Sequence record: MN850603.1
DNA length: 64,000 nt
DNA from: Escherichia phage pinkbiff
Reading direction: 5' to 3' (one strand)
Position 1 is the stretch's first letter, and every line of letters begins with the position of its first letter. The notes under the pieces are model-generated. The model was not told the origin of the DNA, searched no databases, and saw nothing but the letters and a program-made list of their open reading frames with translations. Below, piece by piece: positions 7,969 to 59,358 of this stretch. A program made the translations under genes and the position numbers.

Positions 7969-8086
7969 ATAAACTTTTCAAACTCTATGTAACCACTTTA
8001 ACATTATTTTTTAGTGATTGTCAAGAACTTTTTTAAAATATTTTTCAGTATCTTAGAAAAGCTCTCATTTCGTTTCTATGTAGAAC

Positions 8087-9628: not shown

Positions 9629-10000
9629 TTATTTTTTGAGAGTCGCTACAGCAGAAAACGTTGGTTTGTTATCTGTCTGGGTTTGACCACCATTATCGGG
9701 GGTCTTCTTAGTGTCTGCTGCAATCGCTTTCATCTCACCTGCTGAGTGGGTCATGATAGTTTTACCAGCTTCCATCATCGACTTCAGGTTTACATCGTCA
9801 GTCGTCAAACCGAACTCTGCAAGCTTAGCAGCATCCCTTGTAACAATCGCCTCAAACAACTTTGCAGCAAACTCAGCAGAATTATCAATGGTCAGTTGAG
9901 CTTTTACGAGTGAGCTTTTGTTACGAGAGCCTTTTGGTCTTCCAGATGGGTTTCCAGACTGGCCTTTTTTAAACTGGCCTTTGTTTGTTCTGTTTTTCAT
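9629..10000 (-). CDS. hypothetical basic protein (123 aa)
   Basis: ATG at 10000 with AAGAGG SD; N-terminal Gly/Lys/Arg-rich segment. Confidence 0.6.
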   Translation of the reverse strand: MKNRTNKGQFKKGQSGNPSGRPKGSRNKSSLVKAQLTIDNSAEFAAKLFEAIVTRDAAKLAEFGLTTDDVNLKSMMEAGKTIMTHSAGEMKAIAADTKKTPDNGGQTQTDNKPTFSAVATLKK

Positions 10001-10175
10001 TGGTATGCCTCTTATAAGACCTCTTAAAAGGCTTTTAAGATAAAAGATAGATATCCAGAAAGATATCTGTTTAAATAGCCTTTTTAGAGGAACCTTTTAA
10101 GTTATCTTCTAAGTATTTATAAGCCTACACCTTGTCAAGTACTTTGTCAACAACTTTTTTAACTTGCAATAGTTC

Positions 10176-10204
10176 TTGACTTGTTGTATGGATTACTGTA
10201 CCAT
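10176..10204 (+). promoter_or_regulatory. candidate promoter for the plus-strand operon
   Basis: TTGACT (10176-10181), 17-nt spacer, TACCAT (10199-10204), about 45 nt upstream of the first plus-strand ORF. Confidence 0.3.
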
Positions 10205-10249: not shown

Positions 10250-10411
10250 ATGAGGAAATCAAATAAACCGAAGAAAGGTAAGAATACCAATCACTGTAAG
10301 GAATCAAAAAGGGTAGAATTAATCTACTATTCATCCTCTGAAATTGGTCTGTACCTGTTCTTTCAAAATTACAGAAGACAAGAGGATTATCTATGTGTAG
10401 TTCCCAATTAG
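10250..10411 (+). CDS. hypothetical small basic protein (53 aa)
   Basis: ATG at 10250 preceded by AAGGAGA; track ORF starts at an upstream TTG. Confidence 0.4.
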   Translation: MRKSNKPKKGKNTNHCKESKRVELIYYSSSEIGLYLFFQNYRRQEDYLCVVPN

Positions 10412-17749: not shown

Positions 17750-19330
17750 AAATTTACGAAATTTATATTTTTATAAAATTTTATCGGTTGTCCCAACCTC
17801 TGGGTCACCATCATATGTGAATAAAATATCTATCCTTCTTAACAGCCTTCTTAATCTTACTCTCTATGTAGTTATATAGTACTATATAGTATCTTAGTAA
17901 CTATCTAGTGGTCTTAATAGCCCTCTGTATAACCCTTCTAACAAGCCCTCTAACAAGCCTTCTAAACACTCTTCTAACAAGCCTTCTTAACAACCTATAC
18001 AATCACCTTAATCATCCATCTACACCCTCTTAGAAGCTCCTATACACCTCTTAATCTCTAGGTTACCTATGTTACCCTCTATAGGTGTTCACTAGGTATT
18101 ACTAAGCCTCTATATAGACTGTTTTAACAAACTTAACAGGAATATCTTTACAGACCTTATCTCACAAGGTCTAACACGGTACTAACAAGGTATCTTATAA
18201 GCCTGTTTCTACCTGTATTTTTAAAATACTGTCTAGGTAATTATTCAGAATTTTAAAATTTTTATAAAATAGAGCTATCAAGTCATTTTTTAGGGTCTTT
18301 GAAGGAACTGAAAAATATCTGTCTAGGATGTATATCTGCTTGGTAGCCCTTAACAGCTCCCTTACAAGTACTTTGCAGAATTTTAAAATATCATTAACAG
18401 TTTCTTAACAGTTCTCACATCTTCTTAACAACTCTTCAAAGGTCTTAACAGATTCTTAACAGAACTAACAAGGGCTTAACAGTTTTCTAGGGATTGGTAA
18501 CAATACCAATTAACAAGTACTGAATAGGCTTTACAGAATCTTAACAGATGACTAACAAGAGCTAACAAGTTAATTTTAAAGAGTTATTTTGTTAAGATAA
18601 TTAACAAGTTCCTAACAAGTGTTTAATCTTTTTAACAAGCTATTAACATGGTCACTACTCTTTTCTTATCGTTCCCTTTCCTTTCTTAGTGACTTCTTAA
18701 ACATACCTCTTAAAAGCTCTTAAAAGCTCTTTATAGGCTCTTTTAAGTCCCTCCCTAGTATTTACCCCTCAACTGTATGGATAGCTCTTTATAGGGCTTT
18801 ACAGGAGCTTTTAAGGCTATGCCAAAGGTTCTTACAAGGTTTTTACGTGGTCTTAACAGAGATTTAACAAGGTGCTAACAAGAATAACTATGTAGGGTTT
18901 GTTAAGAAAATGTTAAAAAAATGTTAAGGGGGCTAGCATTTACGTAACTTTTAAGCTACTTCAAAGTAACTTTATAACCCCTATAACATGCTTTTTAATA
19001 GCTATCAAGGGGTTTGTTTAATCATTCACAAGATACTAGCCAGCCTATAAGCTTTCACCCTTATAAGATTCTTTTAAGGCTCTGGGAAGCTTTATAAAGG
19101 GCTTTTAAGGGTGAGGTAATGCAATCCCTTAAGTTAGGTTAATAAGGCCGTTATAGGGCTTTATAGAGCGTTTAAATGGTTGCCCTTCCCTTTCGGGTTA
19201 TGGGCTTATATTTAAGTTGATTTGATAAGAGGTTATAGAGTAGACTATAGAGTTATTGCTTTTTAAGGTCTAGTAAGATTCTGGAAAGGAAAGGGAAAGG
19301 GTTTGTATAAGGATTCGATAGACGTAAAAA
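17750..19330. repeat. 1.6 kb non-coding iteron-rich region (over 30 copies of CTTAACAG / CTAACAAG-type motifs plus CTTTTAAG / CTTTATAG motifs; AT-rich blocks)
   Basis: No ORF of any size with SD; dense short direct repeats at roughly 8-12 bp spacing (e.g. 17935-17995, 18395-18660, 18850-18880); bounded by convergent terminators. Confidence 0.8.
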
Positions 19331-19739: not shown

Positions 19740-20263
19740 TTTTTGATTGTCTCGTCAATATCTTTTTCAATATCTTTTAAAGTTTTTTCTAAGTTCTTGA
19801 TATTGAACGTTAAACCTTCACCGATGGTTTTAGCGTAACCGTTAGGTCGATGGTCGTAAAGCTCGATATCTTCCACATCGGATAAGTTTACTCTTTCACC
19901 GTTTGAAGCGTAAGCCATTGAAACAGTATTTACAGGGGCTTTATAAAACTTGTTTAAGGTCTTGATTGAACGCTCATAAGCCATTTTATAGCTATTTAAA
20001 AGGTTTTTAACGTGGCTATGAACGTTTTTGCACTCATCCAAGTAAATCCCTAAGAATAGCGGTAATAATTCTGCTACAGCTTGCATAAAGTGAGAGACTA
20101 CAACGGTTGCAGCATTGCGACGATGAACGTAATAAGCCCCGTTTTCTGATTTGGTGATGGTTGCGAAGTGTACACCATTGCAGCGAAATTCGTAGGTATC
20201 TTTGACAGGCTTTGACATTACAGCATTTGAACGAATATAGTTGATGGCTTTGAACTTGTTCAT
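19733..20263 (-). CDS. hypothetical protein (176 aa), cassette gene 2
   Basis: True start is the ATG after the AGGAGA SD (20263); the track N-terminal extension MTSPLNKTLKLGDSKM is a translation of the cassette. Confidence 0.6.
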   Translation of the reverse strand: MNKFKAINYIRSNAVMSKPVKDTYEFRCNGVHFATITKSENGAYYVHRRNAATVVVSHFMQAVAELLPLFLGIYLDECKNVHSHVKNLLNSYKMAYERSIKTLNKFYKAPVNTVSMAYASNGERVNLSDVEDIELYDHRPNGYAKTIGEGLTFNIKNLEKTLKDIEKDIDETIKNL

Positions 20264-20335: not shown

Positions 20336-20423
20336 TTTTGATAGCTGATTGCAAGCAATTTTTTAAGCTTATCTATAAAGAACCTTTTAAGTGAATCCCT
20401 TTTAGAATAAACCCCCTCGAACA

Positions 20424-20452
20424 ACATTACCAATGTCAATAGGTATTGTCAA
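20424..20452 (-). promoter_or_regulatory. sigma70-type promoter inside the small-gene array
   Basis: Minus strand reads TTGACA (20452-20447), 17-nt spacer, TAATGT (20429-20424). Confidence 0.45.
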
Positions 20453-21215: not shown

Positions 21216-21758
21216 TTAGAAAAAGCTCTTTAAATCTCTCTCTGTGATGTTTCCTGTCAGTGTGTCCATGATGTCACAAAAAACCTGAATACTGTCCGAC
21301 TGTTGAACGCTTTTAGCAAGAAGTTCCAGAGACTCATCAAGATAGTTTAAATTTGGGTTATCCAGTGAAGGAAGACAAAAAGGCGAAAACATCGCATTAA
21401 ACTCGGTTACGTAAACCTTTTTAATCCAACTTGCATCAAAGTACTCTGTAAAACTTGCCACGCCAGACATATTATCACAAGAATAATCATCATTCAGCTC
21501 ATCCTCTGGAATATCAAGTTCCAAGATAACAATATTTTGAGTTTTCATCTGGAAAGCTGCGGTGATAGCGGCATTGCCTAATGCTTGCTGGATACCTTCA
21601 GATGCTATCTCTTCCGCATCGTCGCCATAGATTTTATTTTCTGGATATACGTAAAAATTCCCATCCATATCCGAACAATTCCATGCGCCTGATGGTTTAT
21701 CGCCGTTATTAATCAGGTTGAGGAAGTTTTCTTGAGTAGTACCGTGAAAGCATTTCAT
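21216..21758 (-). CDS. hypothetical protein (180 aa), cassette gene
   Basis: ATG 21758 preceded by the conserved TIR. Confidence 0.6.
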   Translation of the reverse strand: MKCFHGTTQENFLNLINNGDKPSGAWNCSDMDGNFYVYPENKIYGDDAEEIASEGIQQALGNAAITAAFQMKTQNIVILELDIPEDELNDDYSCDNMSGVASFTEYFDASWIKKVYVTEFNAMFSPFCLPSLDNPNLNYLDESLELLAKSVQQSDSIQVFCDIMDTLTGNITERDLKSFF

Positions 21759-49278: not shown

Positions 49279-49781
49279 TCATCACCTTTATTAGCAAACT
49301 CTTTGTGTAAACGTTGACGTTCCCTATTTACAACCTCTGCTGCTTCATCAATAGTGTCATAGTTGCCGAAGAAGTAGACCCTCTTCTTAAAAGTTATCTG
49401 TGTAGACCACTTACCATACTGTTTTTTGTAGTACACACCTTTAACACCTGATTTATTGTTCTTATTGAGCAATCTATTACATTGGTTCTCTGATAACGTA
49501 CATGCTCTAAGATTTACCCAACGGTTATCTAGTGTTACATGATTTTTATGGTCAACACACTCAGGGAGGTAACCATCCATATACAGAACAGCTAGTGTAT
49601 GTGCATAATAGCCCTTACCAAACAAATAAATTCTGGTGTAACCTTTTAAGTTTGTACCTGCAACAGAGCCAATTTTTGTGTGTCTAGCAGACTTCTTAAT
49701 CCAAGTAAAGACCCCTGTTTCGGGGTCATAGTGTAGGTATTCTTTAAGAGTTTGTTGGGTTAACATTTGGTGTCCATCCAT
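49275..49781 (-). CDS. HNH homing endonuclease with AP2-type domain (168 aa)
   Basis: V-D-H-K-N-H ... N-L-R-A-C-T-L-S-E-N, C-terminal K-S-G-V-K-G-V ... F-x-x-x-D-E-A; overlaps the 3' end of the FEN gene. Confidence 0.78.
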   Translation of the reverse strand: MDGHQMLTQQTLKEYLHYDPETGVFTWIKKSARHTKIGSVAGTNLKGYTRIYLFGKGYYAHTLAVLYMDGYLPECVDHKNHVTLDNRWVNLRACTLSENQCNRLLNKNNKSGVKGVYYKKQYGKWSTQITFKKRVYFFGNYDTIDEAAEVVNRERQRLHKEFANKGDE

Positions 49782-55978: not shown

Positions 55979-56401
55979 TTATTTCTCTCTCAGTTGGTTA
56001 AGTTTCTTTCTAGAACATTTTAAGTTTTCGGATGAAGAAAAGTCAAGTGTCTTTTCAGAACGTGGATAATAGTGCCTATCCCAAGAAGTTTCAACATCGT
56101 TAATCAGTGACGCTAGATTACACAGGTCTGTACCACTTTGCAACCTCTTTTTAAGAGAATCTAGTAAAGCAACTGTGTCTTTAGCTTTACGTCTCGCTGT
56201 AGCAACATCTTTCATATGCTCAAATACAGAGCATTTTAAGTCATCTTCATAGTTTTCAGACAACTCTATTTCATGTTGTATATCAACCATTCTCCTGTGA
56301 TGGTGAGCATATTCCCGTTGAGCAGCAATGTCAAGTTCTTCCAACTTCTGCAAAGCTCTAACAAAGTCAGCTATGTCTGGGTGAACAAACATTTTCTGCA
56401 T
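55979..56401 (-). CDS. hypothetical protein (140 aa)
   Basis: ATG 56401. Confidence 0.55.
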   Translation of the reverse strand: MQKMFVHPDIADFVRALQKLEELDIAAQREYAHHHRRMVDIQHEIELSENYEDDLKCSVFEHMKDVATARRKAKDTVALLDSLKKRLQSGTDLCNLASLINDVETSWDRHYYPRSEKTLDFSSSENLKCSRKKLNQLREK

Positions 56402-56658
56402 GTAAGCCTCTTTTAAGTAACTATTAAGTTTTAATCTTTTATCTTAACGTATTCTATACGTTATACTTTAAAGCTTTTTAAAAGCTATTAAATAATCTTT
56501 TAAGAGTTTTAAAGTATCTGTATAGTTAAACTGTTAAGTAACCTTTTAAGTAAAAACCCACTTCGCAAAGATTAACACCTTGTCAAGTACATTGTCAACT
56601 TGCTTTTTATAATTTTTTGCAGTAATGTATGAGGTTAATGATTTTAGAGGGAGTAAAA

Positions 56659-59358
56659 ATGGAAAACGTAGATTTTAAAAACTTACATTTGGTTGGTGAT
56701 ACAGAAACTGATGGTTTACTCCTTGAGTTCACTAAAGTGCACGTAATGGCTTTCGCAGACTATAAATCTGACGAGGAAGAGCCACCTGTATGGGTCTTTA
56801 CAGATGAACCTATCCTCGGTCACAAGTACACTAAGTACATCAAAGGTGGTTTACGTGAAGGTGTTGAATTTGCGTTAAAGGCAAAACGTCTTTGCATTCA
56901 TAATGGTCTCGGTTATGACTGGTGGGTTTTCAATCACATTGCACCTGATTTATGGAACTTTGATAATCCAAAGTGTAAACCGTGGAGTAATTTCTTTCAG
57001 GACTCTCTTATCCAGTCTCGTGTTCAGTGGATGGATAGGCCAACCCCAAAGGGTTATAAAGGTGCTCATGGTTTGGCTGCATGGGGTGCTCGTGTTGGTG
57101 TCCGTAAACCAGAGATTGAACATTGGGGTGTGTGGAATGCAGAAATCTTCACTCGTGTTGTAGAAGATATCCGTATTAATGCCAAAACTAAACGGGCACT
57201 TGATAACGAGTATCTCAAGCTTAAGAAGTGTGGTATAGACACTTATGAGACTTACATGCGAGCTAAAGAGACATCTTTCTGGATGAGCCAGCAAGCTATC
57301 AATGGTTGGAAAGCTGATAAAGAGCTTATGGAGTTCCATGTAAAGGAACTTGACAAGTTGACTAATGAGCTTGCTTCAGAGGTTGAACCACATCTTCCTC
57401 CAACTATTAAGACCAAAGGTAAAGTCACTGGAGAAGAGTTTGCAAAAGCTTGGAATGAGTATGTTGAAACATTCGGTCATGCAGATGGACTGAAGAGAAT
57501 TACCAAGTACCCTAAAACAAAGTATCGTCAGCAGGTACGTAACGGTGAGATGCAGACATACGAAATCAAGCCATTTGGTAAGCCAACTACAAAGATTTTT
57601 AACATTGAAAAGAGAAATTGCTATACACCAACCAACTCTGTAACTGGTGAAGAGTACAAGGAAGGCTTTGTAGCAATGAAGGATGCTCGTGCAATTTGCA
57701 ATGAGTTGAATGCAAAGATTGGCAAGAAATGCAAAGACTGGAAGCCAGTAAAAACAGTCAAGACTGTGAAGTACTATAACAGTCACGTTGTCAATCACTT
57801 TGAACTTGAGTCAAGTCGCTACACAGGTTTGATTGATGCACCATATACACCAATTGAGTTTGAAGTTTCTCGTATGACTCAGGTAGCAGTTGTTAAAGAC
57901 TACTTGAAATCAGTTGGTTGGATTCCAGATGACTGGAACTACAAGAAAGACTCAGACGGTCGCCCTGTCAAAGTTTGTCGTTTCAAAGACAATAAAAAGA
58001 TGATTACAAAACACCCTAAGTGGCAGGAAATGGTTGAGCGGTGTGGTTTGAGTTATGTTGAACATGAAGGTGTCCAGTATATTGAGCATAACTGGTCTGT
58101 GAAGAAATACACAGATTTGCTTGAGCCTTGCTTAATCCGTACTTCACCAAAACTTACTGAATCATCTTATGATACGATTGAAGGTGAGCTTGGACAGAAG
58201 ATTGCTAAATACTACACTTTGATGCACCGACGCAGAACTATTGAGAACTCAAAGGATGATGAAAAAGGTTGGTTGAACCAGATTCGTCCTGATGGTCGCC
58301 TTAGTGCTGGTGCAATGGTGTTTGGTACTTCAACTGGACGTATGACACAATATGGTATTGTAAACGTACCGTCTGGTGCTGCTGTCTATGGAGCACCTAT
58401 GAGGGAGGTGTGGACTTGTGAAGATGGTACAGATATCATCTCCGTAGACCAAAACTCAGCCCAGCTAGTTCTTCTTTGTAACTTTATGGGTGATGAAGAC
58501 TTCACTAAAGCGGTAACTGAGGGTAAAGAGTCAGTAGAGTTCACTAAGCAAGATGATGGTAGATACTACTGTAAACATCTTGACAAGTATCTTAACCCAG
58601 AAACTGACAAGTATCTGCGTTATGATGCTGAAAATGACCTCTATGAAGTCTACACAGGGACTGATGCGCATACACTGAACAGTATTTACTTTGGTCTTAA
58701 CAAAGAAGAGGATATTGTTCGTTGCAGGGAGACACAGGATGAGGAACTTCTCCACGAGATTACAAAAGGTCGTAAGAAGAGCAAAAATGGCATCTACGCC
58801 CTGTTATTTGGAGCCGGAGACGAGAAGTTTGCAAAAACTATCAAGGCATCATCTACGGAAGAGGGTGCATTGACTAAACAAACTTACTTTGTGCGTCTAC
58901 CTAAGATTAAAAAGCTGCTTGATAGACTAGAGGAAGACTTCAAAGCAACTAAGAAAGCACTTGAAGAGGTTTTCGGAAAGACTTCTGCAATTGCAAAAGG
59001 TGGCTATATCAAGGTTGCTGGGGCGTGGTTATGGTGTAAATCTCCACATAAGTTATTGAATTACACACTTATGGGCAGTGAGGCGCAGGTGCAGAATGAG
59101 GGTATTAACTTGGCTAACAGGGAGTTAACAGAGCGCAAGCTTACAGTTCTAAATGGTAGGAAGCCAGCTATTGGTGCTAGGTGGGTCTGTAGTTACCACG
59201 ATGAGGTCTCTTTAGAGGTTCCAACCAAAGATGTACCTGATGTTAAGGAGATTATTGATAGAATGTATGGTCAAGCATCAAAAAATCTTGGATTAAAGAG
59301 TAAGACGCTTGTTACAGGCACTGGTAAGGTAGGTAAGACATGGTACGCCGTACACTAA
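56659..59358 (+). CDS. DNA polymerase, family A, with 3'-5' exonuclease domain
   Basis: Exo I L-V-G-D-T-E-T-D-G; motif B-like R-K-K-S-K-N-G-I-Y-A-L-L-F-G-A-G; motif C Y-H-D-E; ATG 56659 with GAGGGAG SD. Confidence 0.88.
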   Translation: MENVDFKNLHLVGDTETDGLLLEFTKVHVMAFADYKSDEEEPPVWVFTDEPILGHKYTKYIKGGLREGVEFALKAKRLCIHNGLGYDWWVFNHIAPDLWNFDNPKCKPWSNFFQDSLIQSRVQWMDRPTPKGYKGAHGLAAWGARVGVRKPEIEHWGVWNAEIFTRVVEDIRINAKTKRALDNEYLKLKKCGIDTYETYMRAKETSFWMSQQAINGWKADKELMEFHVKELDKLTNELASEVEPHLPPTIKTKGKVTGEEFAKAWNEYVETFGHADGLKRITKYPKTKYRQQVRNGEMQTYEIKPFGKPTTKIFNIEKRNCYTPTNSVTGEEYKEGFVAMKDARAICNELNAKIGKKCKDWKPVKTVKTVKYYNSHVVNHFELESSRYTGLIDAPYTPIEFEVSRMTQVAVVKDYLKSVGWIPDDWNYKKDSDGRPVKVCRFKDNKKMITKHPKWQEMVERCGLSYVEHEGVQYIEHNWSVKKYTDLLEPCLIRTSPKLTESSYDTIEGELGQKIAKYYTLMHRRRTIENSKDDEKGWLNQIRPDGRLSAGAMVFGTSTGRMTQYGIVNVPSGAAVYGAPMREVWTCEDGTDIISVDQNSAQLVLLCNFMGDEDFTKAVTEGKESVEFTKQDDGRYYCKHLDKYLNPETDKYLRYDAENDLYEVYTGTDAHTLNSIYFGLNKEEDIVRCRETQDEELLHEITKGRKKSKNGIYALLFGAGDEKFAKTIKASSTEEGALTKQTYFVRLPKIKKLLDRLEEDFKATKKALEEVFGKTSAIAKGGYIKVAGAWLWCKSPHKLLNYTLMGSEAQVQNEGINLANRELTERKLTVLNGRKPAIGARWVCSYHDEVSLEVPTKDVPDVKEIIDRMYGQASKNLGLKSKTLVTGTGKVGKTWYAVH

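Follow-up and report, generated by a model that had tools for sequence, protein, structure and literature searches.

Two divergent intergenic regions of Escherichia phage pinkbiff (sequence record MN850603.1) contain the same short sequence, which raises the question of what this sequence does and which of the flanking genes it serves. The stretch analyzed here, hereafter the window, comprises 64,000 nucleotides (nt) of this Felix O1-like myovirus (Felixounavirus). The first region (site 1) separates a minus-strand gene with its start-codon end at 10000 from a plus-strand gene starting at 10250, and the second (site 2) separates a minus-strand gene with its start-codon end at 56401 from a plus-strand gene starting at 56659. 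Both regions are 97–99% identical to Felixounavirus genomes (Alf5, humlepung, Felix O1), and the window is oriented opposite to the Felix O1 reference. A preliminary description of the window rightly placed the shared sequence in divergent regions upstream of the two plus-strand genes and assigned it to the plus-strand operons; our comparative analysis points instead to the units on the minus strand. We put the probability at roughly 0.7 that the motif is the -35-to-spacer core of two paralogous leftward promoters of the host sigma-70 type, that is, of two candidate start points.

A tandem-box motif present in two copies

The motif, CCTTGTCAAGTAC(T/A)TTGTCAAC, occurs at 10130–10151 (site 1) and 56578–56599 (site 2). 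The preliminary description had reported it in both divergent regions, with the second copy at 56576–56600, and had proposed a genome-wide motif search. That search, at up to three mismatches, recovers only these two copies in the window, compared with 0.01 expected from shuffled sequences, and the whole 86-kilobase (kb) Felix O1 genome likewise contains exactly two. Positions 10127–10151 and 56575–56599 agree at 24 of 25 bases, and aligning the two intergenic regions locally gives a score of 48, where shuffled sequences reach at most 30; the homology ends after ~25–40 nt. The heptamer TTGTCAA alone is not enriched in the window (29 matches vs 20.9 expected). Read on the minus strand, the motif becomes GTTGACAA-N4-CTTGACAAGGTG, in which two perfect TTGACA hexamers recur with a period of 12 base pairs (bp). 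Each box is near-palindromic (TTGnCAA), and the perfect TTGACA is found on the minus strand only.

Candidate leftward promoters at both sites

On the minus strand, each site would present, in order, an A-rich tract, a distal TTGACA acting as the -35 element, a spacer of 17 or 18 bp, a weak -10 hexamer and an AT-rich leader, with each leftward promoter standing back to back with a rightward one. At site 1, the proposed -35 element is the perfect distal TTGACA at 10145..10150 (minus strand, as are all elements in this paragraph), which is invariant in all relatives. The proposed -10 hexamer, TAGGCT (10122..10127), lies 17 bp from it, and the promoter scores 11.83 bits with a sigma-70 position weight matrix, ranking 17th in the window. 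The proximal TTGACA (CTTGACAAGG; 10133..10138) falls inside the promoter spacer and is invariant in Felixounavirus, Mooglevirus and Suspvirus, while an A-rich tract resembling an UP element (ATTGCAAGTTAAAAAAGTTG; 10151..10170) lies upstream of the distal box. Site 2 offers a perfect distal TTGACA (56593..56598) as the proposed -35 element of the unit headed by open reading frame (ORF) 97, a proximal TTGACA (CTTGACAAGGTG; 56581..56586) that is invariant in 10 distinct sequences from the three genera, and a proposed -10 hexamer, TAATCT (56569..56574), 18 bp from the distal box and scoring 9.54 bits. The A-tract preceding the distal box reads GTTAAAAAAGTT at site 1 and ATTATAAAAAGCAA at site 2. 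The two candidate promoters are located 122 nt (site 1) and 168 nt (site 2) upstream of the start codons of ORF41 and ORF97 (Felix O1 numbering), respectively.

Within its intergenic region, the site 1 promoter is the best leftward sigma-70-like candidate (11.8 bits), and the site 2 promoter is the sole minus-strand candidate of at least 6.5 bits. At both sites, as expected of sigma-70 promoters, a perfect TTGACA is followed by TAnnnT at 17–18 bp, and orientation and position fit. Across the window, the weight matrix detects 33 sites of at least 11 bits, compared with 11 in shuffled sequences, mostly on the transcribed strand. The layout of A-tract, TTGACA(A), 16–18 bp and TAnnnT recurs at ~10 other minus-strand sites, and a TTTTAAAAAAGT-type tract also precedes other TTGACA promoters, with -35 elements starting at 8024, 8115, 9616, 20452 and 24707. 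We favor leftward promoters of the sigma-70 type because a perfect minus-strand TTGACA, a distance of 17–18 bp to a conserved TAnnnT and an A-tract come together at both sites; these grounds also make it probable that the motif was wrongly assigned to the plus-strand operons before. The proximal box was also considered as an independent -35 element and rejected, as no TAnnnT lies 16–18 bp downstream of it in any lineage; at site 1, its best -10 candidate reaches 7.4 bits at a spacing of 15 bp.

In Felix O1, Whichard et al. 2010 (PMC3185647) predicted a promoter, P41, whose start at position 21515 coincides with the distal box of site 1. They paired this box with TATAGG at N15; our comparison differs in favoring TAGGCT at N17. 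The same study stated that no sequence homologous to P41 exists in the 96–97 region. This statement is incorrect, as a near-identical copy lies at site 2. In the AYO145A record (KR014248), the 30 nt matching window positions 56598..56569, including the site 2 distal box, are annotated as a minus-strand promoter of the TTGACA(N15-18)TATAAT type. The tandem boxes, the downstream element described below and the conservation of both appear in neither Whichard et al. 2010 nor the AYO145A record.

The proposed promoters would account for the starts of two long leftward units. From site 1, P41 would launch the gene of a DUF5681 protein (the ORF41 homologue; 9629–10000, minus strand), which is the first gene to its left, then ORF42, encoding an RNA-binding protein, and a transfer RNA (tRNA) block, continuing into packaging and structural genes. 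From site 2, the second promoter would launch the ORF97 unit, a long set of nucleotide-metabolism, replication and rII genes that includes a deoxynucleoside monophosphate (dNMP) kinase, a primase/helicase, an exonuclease and nrd genes, among others. On the opposite sides, the plus-strand genes from 10250 correspond to ORF40 to ORF24, and the DNA polymerase gene, ORF96, starts at 56659. Whichard et al. 2010 (PMC3185647) described four transcription units in Felix O1, diverging at 40/41 and 96/97; they stated that its temporal control is not understood and reported no polymerase-modifying proteins. By reverse transcription polymerase chain reaction (RT-PCR) in Felix O1, ORFs 41, 42, 97, 98 and 99 share one class, with a maximum at 25 min; ORF96 and ORF38 also reach their maximum at 25 min, and ORF22 does so at 5 min. 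We infer that sites 1 and 2 are active start points.

Conservation of the boxes and the -10 hexamer

The two regions were aligned from Felixounavirus, Mooglevirus and Suspvirus (alignments A1 and A2), and ~50 orthologous loci from IMG/VR were added. Both TTGACAA boxes are unchanged in ~20 Felixounavirus genomes, in Mooglevirus and in Suspvirus, and the 4–5 bases between them are the most variable positions of the neighborhood (AGTAC, AGGAC and AGCAC at site 1; TGTAC, TGCAC, TGCGC and TACAC at site 2). Across the ~20 genomes, the inter-box variants of the two sites assort independently. Given this independent assortment and the free spacer, the GTAC common to both window sites is coincidental and the motif is not homogenized. 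Concerted evolution of the spacer, as the pairs AGCAC/TGCAC in Felix O1 and AGTAC/TGTAC in the window might suggest, was rejected for the same reason. The ~22-nt unit of the preliminary description stands as far as its tandem TTGTCA/TTGACA hexamers are concerned; as a unit it dissolves into two 7-bp boxes plus flanks, with an unconstrained GTAC spacer between them.

The inter-box bases deserve a separate remark. Within DNA that does not vary otherwise, positions 10140–10142 and 56588–56590 are a hot spot of polymorphism, the central base being T, G or C among near-identical genomes, and in the window the inter-box bases create GTAC (AGTACT at site 1). Restriction-site avoidance is one possibility for this polymorphism.

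The -10 hexamers vary within a fixed frame. At site 1, they read TAGGCT, TAGCCT, TAAGTT or TAGTGT, and TACTCT in Hafnia phage Zyzzx; at site 2, they read TAATCT or TAGTCT, with TATTGT in Zyzzx, TAGGCT in Pectobacterium phage Wc4, and TACATT in Erwinia phage Hena2 and Salmonella phage PMBT37. T1, A2 and T6 are kept through these 10 hexamers from seven lineages (Felixounavirus, Mooglevirus, Suspvirus, Zyzzx, Wc4, Hena2 and PMBT37).

The more distant relatives, whose DNA polymerases are 55–63% identical (Zyzzx 55%), extend this comparison to other box arrangements. In Wc4, Hena2 and PMBT37, a single CTTGACA stands beside the polymerase gene, 17 bp from a leftward -10 hexamer (TAGGCT or TACATT), and the proximal box is absent. 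In Zyzzx, each region contains two boxes (periods of 10 and 11 bp), and the -10 hexamer is shifted in such a way that the 17 bp from the distal box are kept; across the whole genome of this phage, the two orthologous regions are the only places with perfect tandem boxes. In these lineages, the spacing held constant by selection is the distance from the distal box to the -10 hexamer, as a sigma-70 promoter needs. In Yersinia phage P778 (locus L191, ~495–545), the boxes are inverted (TGTCAAG-A-CTTGACA), each with its own -10 hexamer, forming compact back-to-back promoters. The preliminary description had argued for a common regulatory site rather than chance similarity, and this is supported by the invariance of the boxes across three genera, by the tandem boxes of Zyzzx at the same two regions and by the co-varying downstream element presented below. 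An exact IMG/VR scan for TTGACAA-N5-TTGACAAG was set aside as too unspecific, having returned more than 120 mostly unrelated contigs.

The second box, a third candidate promoter and a downstream element

Perfect tandem boxes are found at three intergenic places in the window, namely sites 1 and 2 and 20452. When at most one mismatch in total is allowed, TTGACA pairs 9–14 bp apart number nine in the window, compared with 2.5 in shuffled sequences. The third candidate promoter (20381..20452, minus strand) lies upstream of the ORF22 homologue and consists of TTGACA at 20452..20447, TTGACA at 20439..20434 (period 13 bp), TAATGT at 20429..20424 and the 12-mer ACTTAAAAGGTT at 20392..20381. Felix O1 keeps both boxes of this promoter despite changes in its spacer and -10 hexamer.

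The same 12-mer follows the other two promoters, 19 nt after the -10 hexamer at site 1 (10091..10102, minus strand) and 17 nt after it at site 2 (56540..56551, minus strand). The window contains four exact copies, all on the minus strand, three of which lie 17–31 nt past the -10 hexamer of tandem-box promoters. Felix O1 has two copies of the 12-mer in all, one at each of the two sites, and Zyzzx has CTTAAAAGACTC exactly twice, both just past its tandem-box promoters. The element reads CTTAAAAG-ACTC in Mooglevirus, Suspvirus, related metagenomic phages and Zyzzx (CTTAATAG-ACTC at Mooglevirus site 2), and the Felixounavirus version ends in GTTC (site 1) or GTTA (site 2). ACTC became GTT(C/A) through the same two substitutions at two loci more than 40 kb apart, a parallel change that would fit a shared trans-acting reader.

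From its pattern of conservation, the proximal box appears to be a functional, lineage-specific and derived addition that is kept by selection and need not hold an exact phase. In combination with the downstream element, it would mark a class of co-regulated promoters with three members in the window. As to what the proximal box might do, our guess, at odds clearly short of even, is that it offers a second docking site for sigma-70 region 4/RNA polymerase or an operator for a phage factor, either of which may tune or time promoters with a weak -10 hexamer. The sole annotated regulator of Felix O1, ORF85, is an XRE-type helix-turn-helix protein encoded outside the window; Felixounavirus, Mooglevirus and Suspvirus all have it, and the Erwinia and Pectobacterium relatives lack it, as fits a reader of the boxes.

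Related sequences also turn up in coding DNA and in other phages. A fourth perfect tandem, TTGACA-N4-TTGACA, lies inside the ORF22 homologue (20202–20217, plus strand), with TATAGT at 18 bp (13 bits); being on the non-transcribed strand, it could be an antisense promoter. The fourth copy of the 12-mer is part of a 14-mer, ACTTAAAAGGTTAC, identical to the site 2 element and located at 49638–49651 (minus strand) in an HNH-endonuclease-like ORF, where it encodes ...NLKGYT...; it may be there by chance or as a trace of homing-endonuclease mobility. In Erwinia phage phiEa104 (locus L190, ~440–680), CTTAAAAG-type elements stand upstream of a TTGACA-16-TAGAAT promoter and downstream of a TTTACA-17-TACACT promoter.

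Evidence against leftward promoters and alternative explanations

Several observations weigh against interpreting the two sites as leftward promoters that share a mode of control. The -10 hexamers match the consensus at only three of six bases, with site 2 scoring just 9.5 bits, and a consensus promoter scanner called neither site because of these three-of-six matches. Since the intergenic regions as a whole are ~92% conserved between genera, invariance of the boxes cannot by itself single out a promoter. Literature searches found no mapped start site or RNA sequencing (RNA-seq) for any Ounavirinae phage. From lineage to lineage and site to site, the box period ranges from 10 to 13 bp, a drift that speaks against a rigid dimer on both boxes, and we only infer a function for the proximal box. 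The candidacy of ORF85 as a box reader is weakened by its absence from Zyzzx, which keeps the tandem boxes, and the parallel change in the downstream element could be short-patch gene conversion rather than co-evolution with a factor.

The tandem boxes could instead be an upstream activator or repressor site, read by a phage or host protein, for the rightward operons, which we consider unlikely. Relative to the DNA polymerase promoter, they would then lie at about -43/-55, and relative to the ORF40-side promoter at about -64/-76. The corresponding plus-strand candidates are TTGACT-17-TACCAT for the ORF40-side operon (10176..10204; 11.48 bits), which is invariant in alignment A1, and the weak TTGCTT-17-TAATGT for the DNA polymerase operon (56600..56628; below 6.5 bits), which abuts the motif and whose TTGCTT and TA(A/G)(T/G)GT are conserved in alignment A2. 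With no plus-strand sigma-70 promoter at site 2 reaching 6.5 bits, the DNA polymerase operon could need help, and the boxes adjoin precisely the -35 element of its candidate promoter. Their near-palindromic form (TTGnCAA) makes them readable from either strand, ORF96 and ORF38 share the 25-min maximum, and TTGTCA-18-AATAGT with an upstream TG supplies another weak plus-strand candidate at site 1. The spacing, however, is constant only toward the left: the leftward TAnnnT lies 17–18 bp away in every lineage, whereas on the rightward side the distance from the boxes to the -35 element is 0 at one site and ~25 bp at the other (differing by ~24 bp), and that to the ATG is 59 versus 98 nt. Moreover, TTGACA is perfect on the minus strand only, the A-tract and the co-varying element lie on the leftward side, and the single box of Wc4, Hena2 and PMBT37 pairs with a leftward -10 hexamer.

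Two further explanations can be weighed. In one, which we judge improbable, an old duplication or gene conversion left the similarity behind, and the second box and the 12-mer are functionless. The shortness of the homology (~25–40 nt), the mosaic nature of phage genomes, in which conversion can yield parallel changes at two sites, and the sufficiency of a single box in the Erwinia and Pectobacterium relatives agree with such a relic; it sits poorly with a second box that remains invariant beside polymorphic bases in ~20 close genomes and that persists in Zyzzx and at the third promoter even though the period differs (10, 11, 12 or 13 bp). The independent assortment of the spacer variants gives no sign of ongoing conversion of the motif, and tandem TTGACA pairs are rare (the nine against 2.5 in shuffles noted above, at up to one mismatch in total). 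Still less probable, and in our view very unlikely, is that the motif and the CTTWWAAG arrays described below serve mainly not in transcription but as parts of replication or packaging sites, such as transcription-primed origins or arrays bound by terminase or another DNA-binding protein. Here one may point to the same 8-mer family filling the direct-terminal-repeat field, to the position of site 1 ahead of a DUF5681 gene, which occupies the small-terminase position in other phages, and to the leaders being the most AT-rich (24–28% G+C), with site 2 adjoining the DNA polymerase gene. Against this, there are only two boxes, each an exact match to the host -35 consensus, the arrays are separable from the tandem boxes, and a model of the DUF5681 protein has no significant fold match. 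Two paralogous leftward promoters remain our preferred reading of the motif.

Leaders, octamer arrays and the terminal-repeat field

Downstream of the candidate -10 hexamers, the leaders are the most AT-rich noncoding stretches (24–28% G+C); they span ~120–170 nt and open with ACTTAAAAGGTT, and the last 8-mer of each overlaps the ribosome-binding site. The site 1 leader (10001..10121, minus strand; 28% G+C) has CTTWWAAG starts at 10011, 10023, 10032 and 10094, and the site 2 leader (56402..56568, minus strand; 24% G+C) contains a dense CTTWWAAG-type array and a small hairpin. Several palindromes accompany these arrays. At site 1, CTTAAAAG-G-CTTTTAAG (10023–10039) and AGATATC-cagaaa-GATATCT (10049–10068) are invariant in the three genera; site 2 has AGCTTTT-T-AAAAGCT at ~56472–56488. 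The site 2 hairpin or palindrome ACGTAT-N3-ATACGT (56449–56463, minus strand) becomes ATGTAT...ATACAT in Mooglevirus, with two pairs kept by double substitutions, and this one small hairpin holds the sole compensatory changes in the leader RNA. Searches of both regions against the covariance models of Rfam 15 gave no match that came near the gathering score. We also discarded long-range pairing between the 12-mer and the ribosome-binding-site region, which is possible at site 1 and not at site 2.

According to the preliminary description, CTTTTAAG elements near the motif recur in an "iteron field", and our counts agree. These elements belong to a palindromic CTTWWAAG family, with one-mismatch relatives such as CTTAACAG, that is densest in this field and at both sites. 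The window contains 39 copies of CTTWWAAG (0.61/kb vs 0.12/kb expected), a roughly five-fold excess, and when 300-bp intervals are ranked by density, the top three are the noncoding field (at 18.7 kb), site 2 and site 1. These places also head the ranking in Felix O1, and in Zyzzx each of them falls within the seven densest intervals. The density of a looser pattern, CT[TA][AT][ACT][ACT]AG, is 34–38 per kb per strand for the leaders and 19.7 for the field, compared with 1.8 elsewhere; overall, the 8-mer family is concentrated 10–20-fold at both leaders and in the noncoding field. The related CCTTTTAAG has eight matches against 1.05 expected, including 10023 (minus strand), 10093 (plus strand) and 56542 (plus strand).

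The noncoding field itself (17760..19330) extends over 1.5 kb between two convergent units and carries the 8-mers CTTAACAG, CTAACAAG and CTTAAAAG at a spacing of 10–12 bp. The 581-bp direct terminal repeat of Felixounavirus phage Pr103Blw maps to 18342–18933 (87% homology), which indicates that the physical genome ends lie in this array field, and packaging signals are probably located there as well. Part of the CTTAAAAG counts is due to ~57-bp modules of the early region (CTTTACAGGGGGCTTAAAAG...TAAGCCCCAGATAAAGAGCTTTACCACT), located on the minus strand at ~21830, 22630, 23705 and 24305, which are the 57-bp repeats of Whichard et al. These modules read as TTTACA-17-TA(A/T)nnT promoters, with a spacer able to fold into a GGGGCTTA/TAAGCCCC hairpin.

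The DUF5681 protein and a possible common module

The first genes of both leftward units were searched against Pfam, PHROGs and PDB sequences, and these searches yielded DUF5681 only. The DUF5681 protein has a conserved N-terminal KGxSGNPxGRPKG motif, and in two unrelated metagenomic phage lineages its gene stands directly before, and overlaps, the large terminase gene. By this gene order, the ORF41 homologue is probably a small terminase subunit; in the phage of the window, a tRNA/HNH block separates the DUF5681 gene from the large terminase. An AlphaFold model of the protein, of mediocre quality (predicted local distance difference test score, pLDDT, of 66), gave no significant fold match. 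It is conceivable that a single DNA-binding protein acts at the terminal repeat and at both leaders. Taken further, the tandem boxes, the CTTAAAAG-RYTC element and the CTTWWAAG arrays might form one module of the Felix O1 group, read by one phage protein, for which the DUF5681 protein would be a candidate, that times the leftward operons and links transcription to packaging. We regard this as a speculative and rather improbable extension. If true, the module would be the temporal switch of a family without a known sigma factor, anti-sigma factor or polymerase modifier.

Significance

What the comparison pins down is a shared promoter architecture, the leftward direction that it probably serves, and the constrained positions, namely the two boxes, the -10 hexamer and the downstream element. 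This narrows the bases worth mutating to a short list and supplies a 60-bp probe with which to fish out a regulator, and it corrects the published claim that P41 has no counterpart in the 96–97 region. Felix O1 has been used for decades in Salmonella typing, and biocontrol makes use of its relatives. In practical terms the gain is modest, consisting of better promoter annotation for the ~250 sequenced Felixounavirus genomes and of candidate parts for engineering these phages.

Some of the related records call for comment. GU169904 (Staphylococcus phage SA1) and MG065668 (Campylobacter phage A126) contain Felix O1-like sequence 96–99% identical to the window; attributed as they are to unrelated hosts, both are probably chimeric or contaminated assemblies. 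The record of Salmonella phage Si3 is linearized within site 1, which is a chance expectation given ~250 records.

Comparison with known systems

Several known regulatory sites resemble individual features of the motif. The sites of lambda CII and P22 C1 consist of TTGC-N6-TTGC direct repeats straddling the -35 element. The boxes described here are likewise direct repeats beginning with TTG, about one helical turn apart, that overlie the -35 element and spacer of a promoter with a poor -10 hexamer; unlike those sites, they are full TTGACA hexamers with a period of 10–13 bp, and the phage is virulent. We know of no CII/C1 homologue in this phage. A CII-type site is not supported, as it needs TTGC-N6-TTGC with a fixed 10-bp period, whereas the boxes read TTGACA and have periods of 12 bp at sites 1 and 2, 13 bp at the third promoter and 10/11 bp in Zyzzx. 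The P22 C1 motif is quoted in PMC4837284. Sites for host factors and for MotA were dismissed. A PhoB pho box has two TGTCA with an 11-bp period, 10 bp upstream of the -10 element; the period here is 12 bp, and the TATAAT of site 2 is not kept in other genera. A match to IHF (TCAA-N4-TT) relies on the unconserved spacer, and resemblances to sigma-E and sigma-32 promoters rely on unconserved bases. The T4 MotA middle promoter, with a TGCTT box at -30 and MotA/AsiA, does not apply to leftward promoters with a consensus -35 element; the TTGCTT of site 2 is shifted by ~2 bp from the proper register and lies on the opposite strand. A separate comparison is with iteron origins, which combine at least three direct initiator sites with an AT-rich unwinding region and an initiator gene; the motif has two boxes, CTTWWAAG arrays and AT-rich leaders are present, and we know of no initiator in this phage.

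The downstream element invites comparison with lambda nutL and nutR, which are shared elements just downstream of two divergent early promoters. Similarly, ACTTAAAAGGTT stands 17–31 nt past the -10 hexamer of promoters that would head long operons extending across many terminators, and Whichard et al. 2010 (PMC3185647) noted terminator read-through as unexplained. Unlike the nut sites, the element has no boxB-like hairpin, and the likeness is a resemblance only. To our knowledge, this phage has no N-like protein. Two terminator-like hairpins flank the terminal-repeat field and, as far as can be read from their sequence, appear to insulate it from transcription; the presence of the same 8-mers in this apparently insulated field favors a role at the DNA level. 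The arrays themselves recall phage T7, which is said, since the work of Dunn and Studier in 1983, to have the SRL/SRR short-repeat arrays, with the heptamer CCTAAAG, beside its terminal repeats. In both phages, arrays of a short A/T-rich motif with a spacing of about one turn lie in or next to a direct terminal repeat; the difference is that here the motif family also occurs in two promoter leaders that lie well away from the genome ends.

Close counterparts of the promoters are the strong early promoters of virulent coliphages such as T4 and T5, which are used by host sigma-70 polymerase and have A-rich upstream tracts. Like these, the leftward promoters would combine a consensus -35 element and an A/T-rich tract, occur in many copies on the early strand, and be read by unmodified host polymerase; unlike these, they have a weak -10 hexamer (three of six bases) and a second -35 hexamer in the spacer, and their genes reach the maximum at 25 min rather than 5 min. 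They are an ordinary kind of promoter, not a new kind of system, with an architecture not previously described, a doubled -35-type box and a co-varying downstream element, whose conservation points to a common regulation of both promoters.

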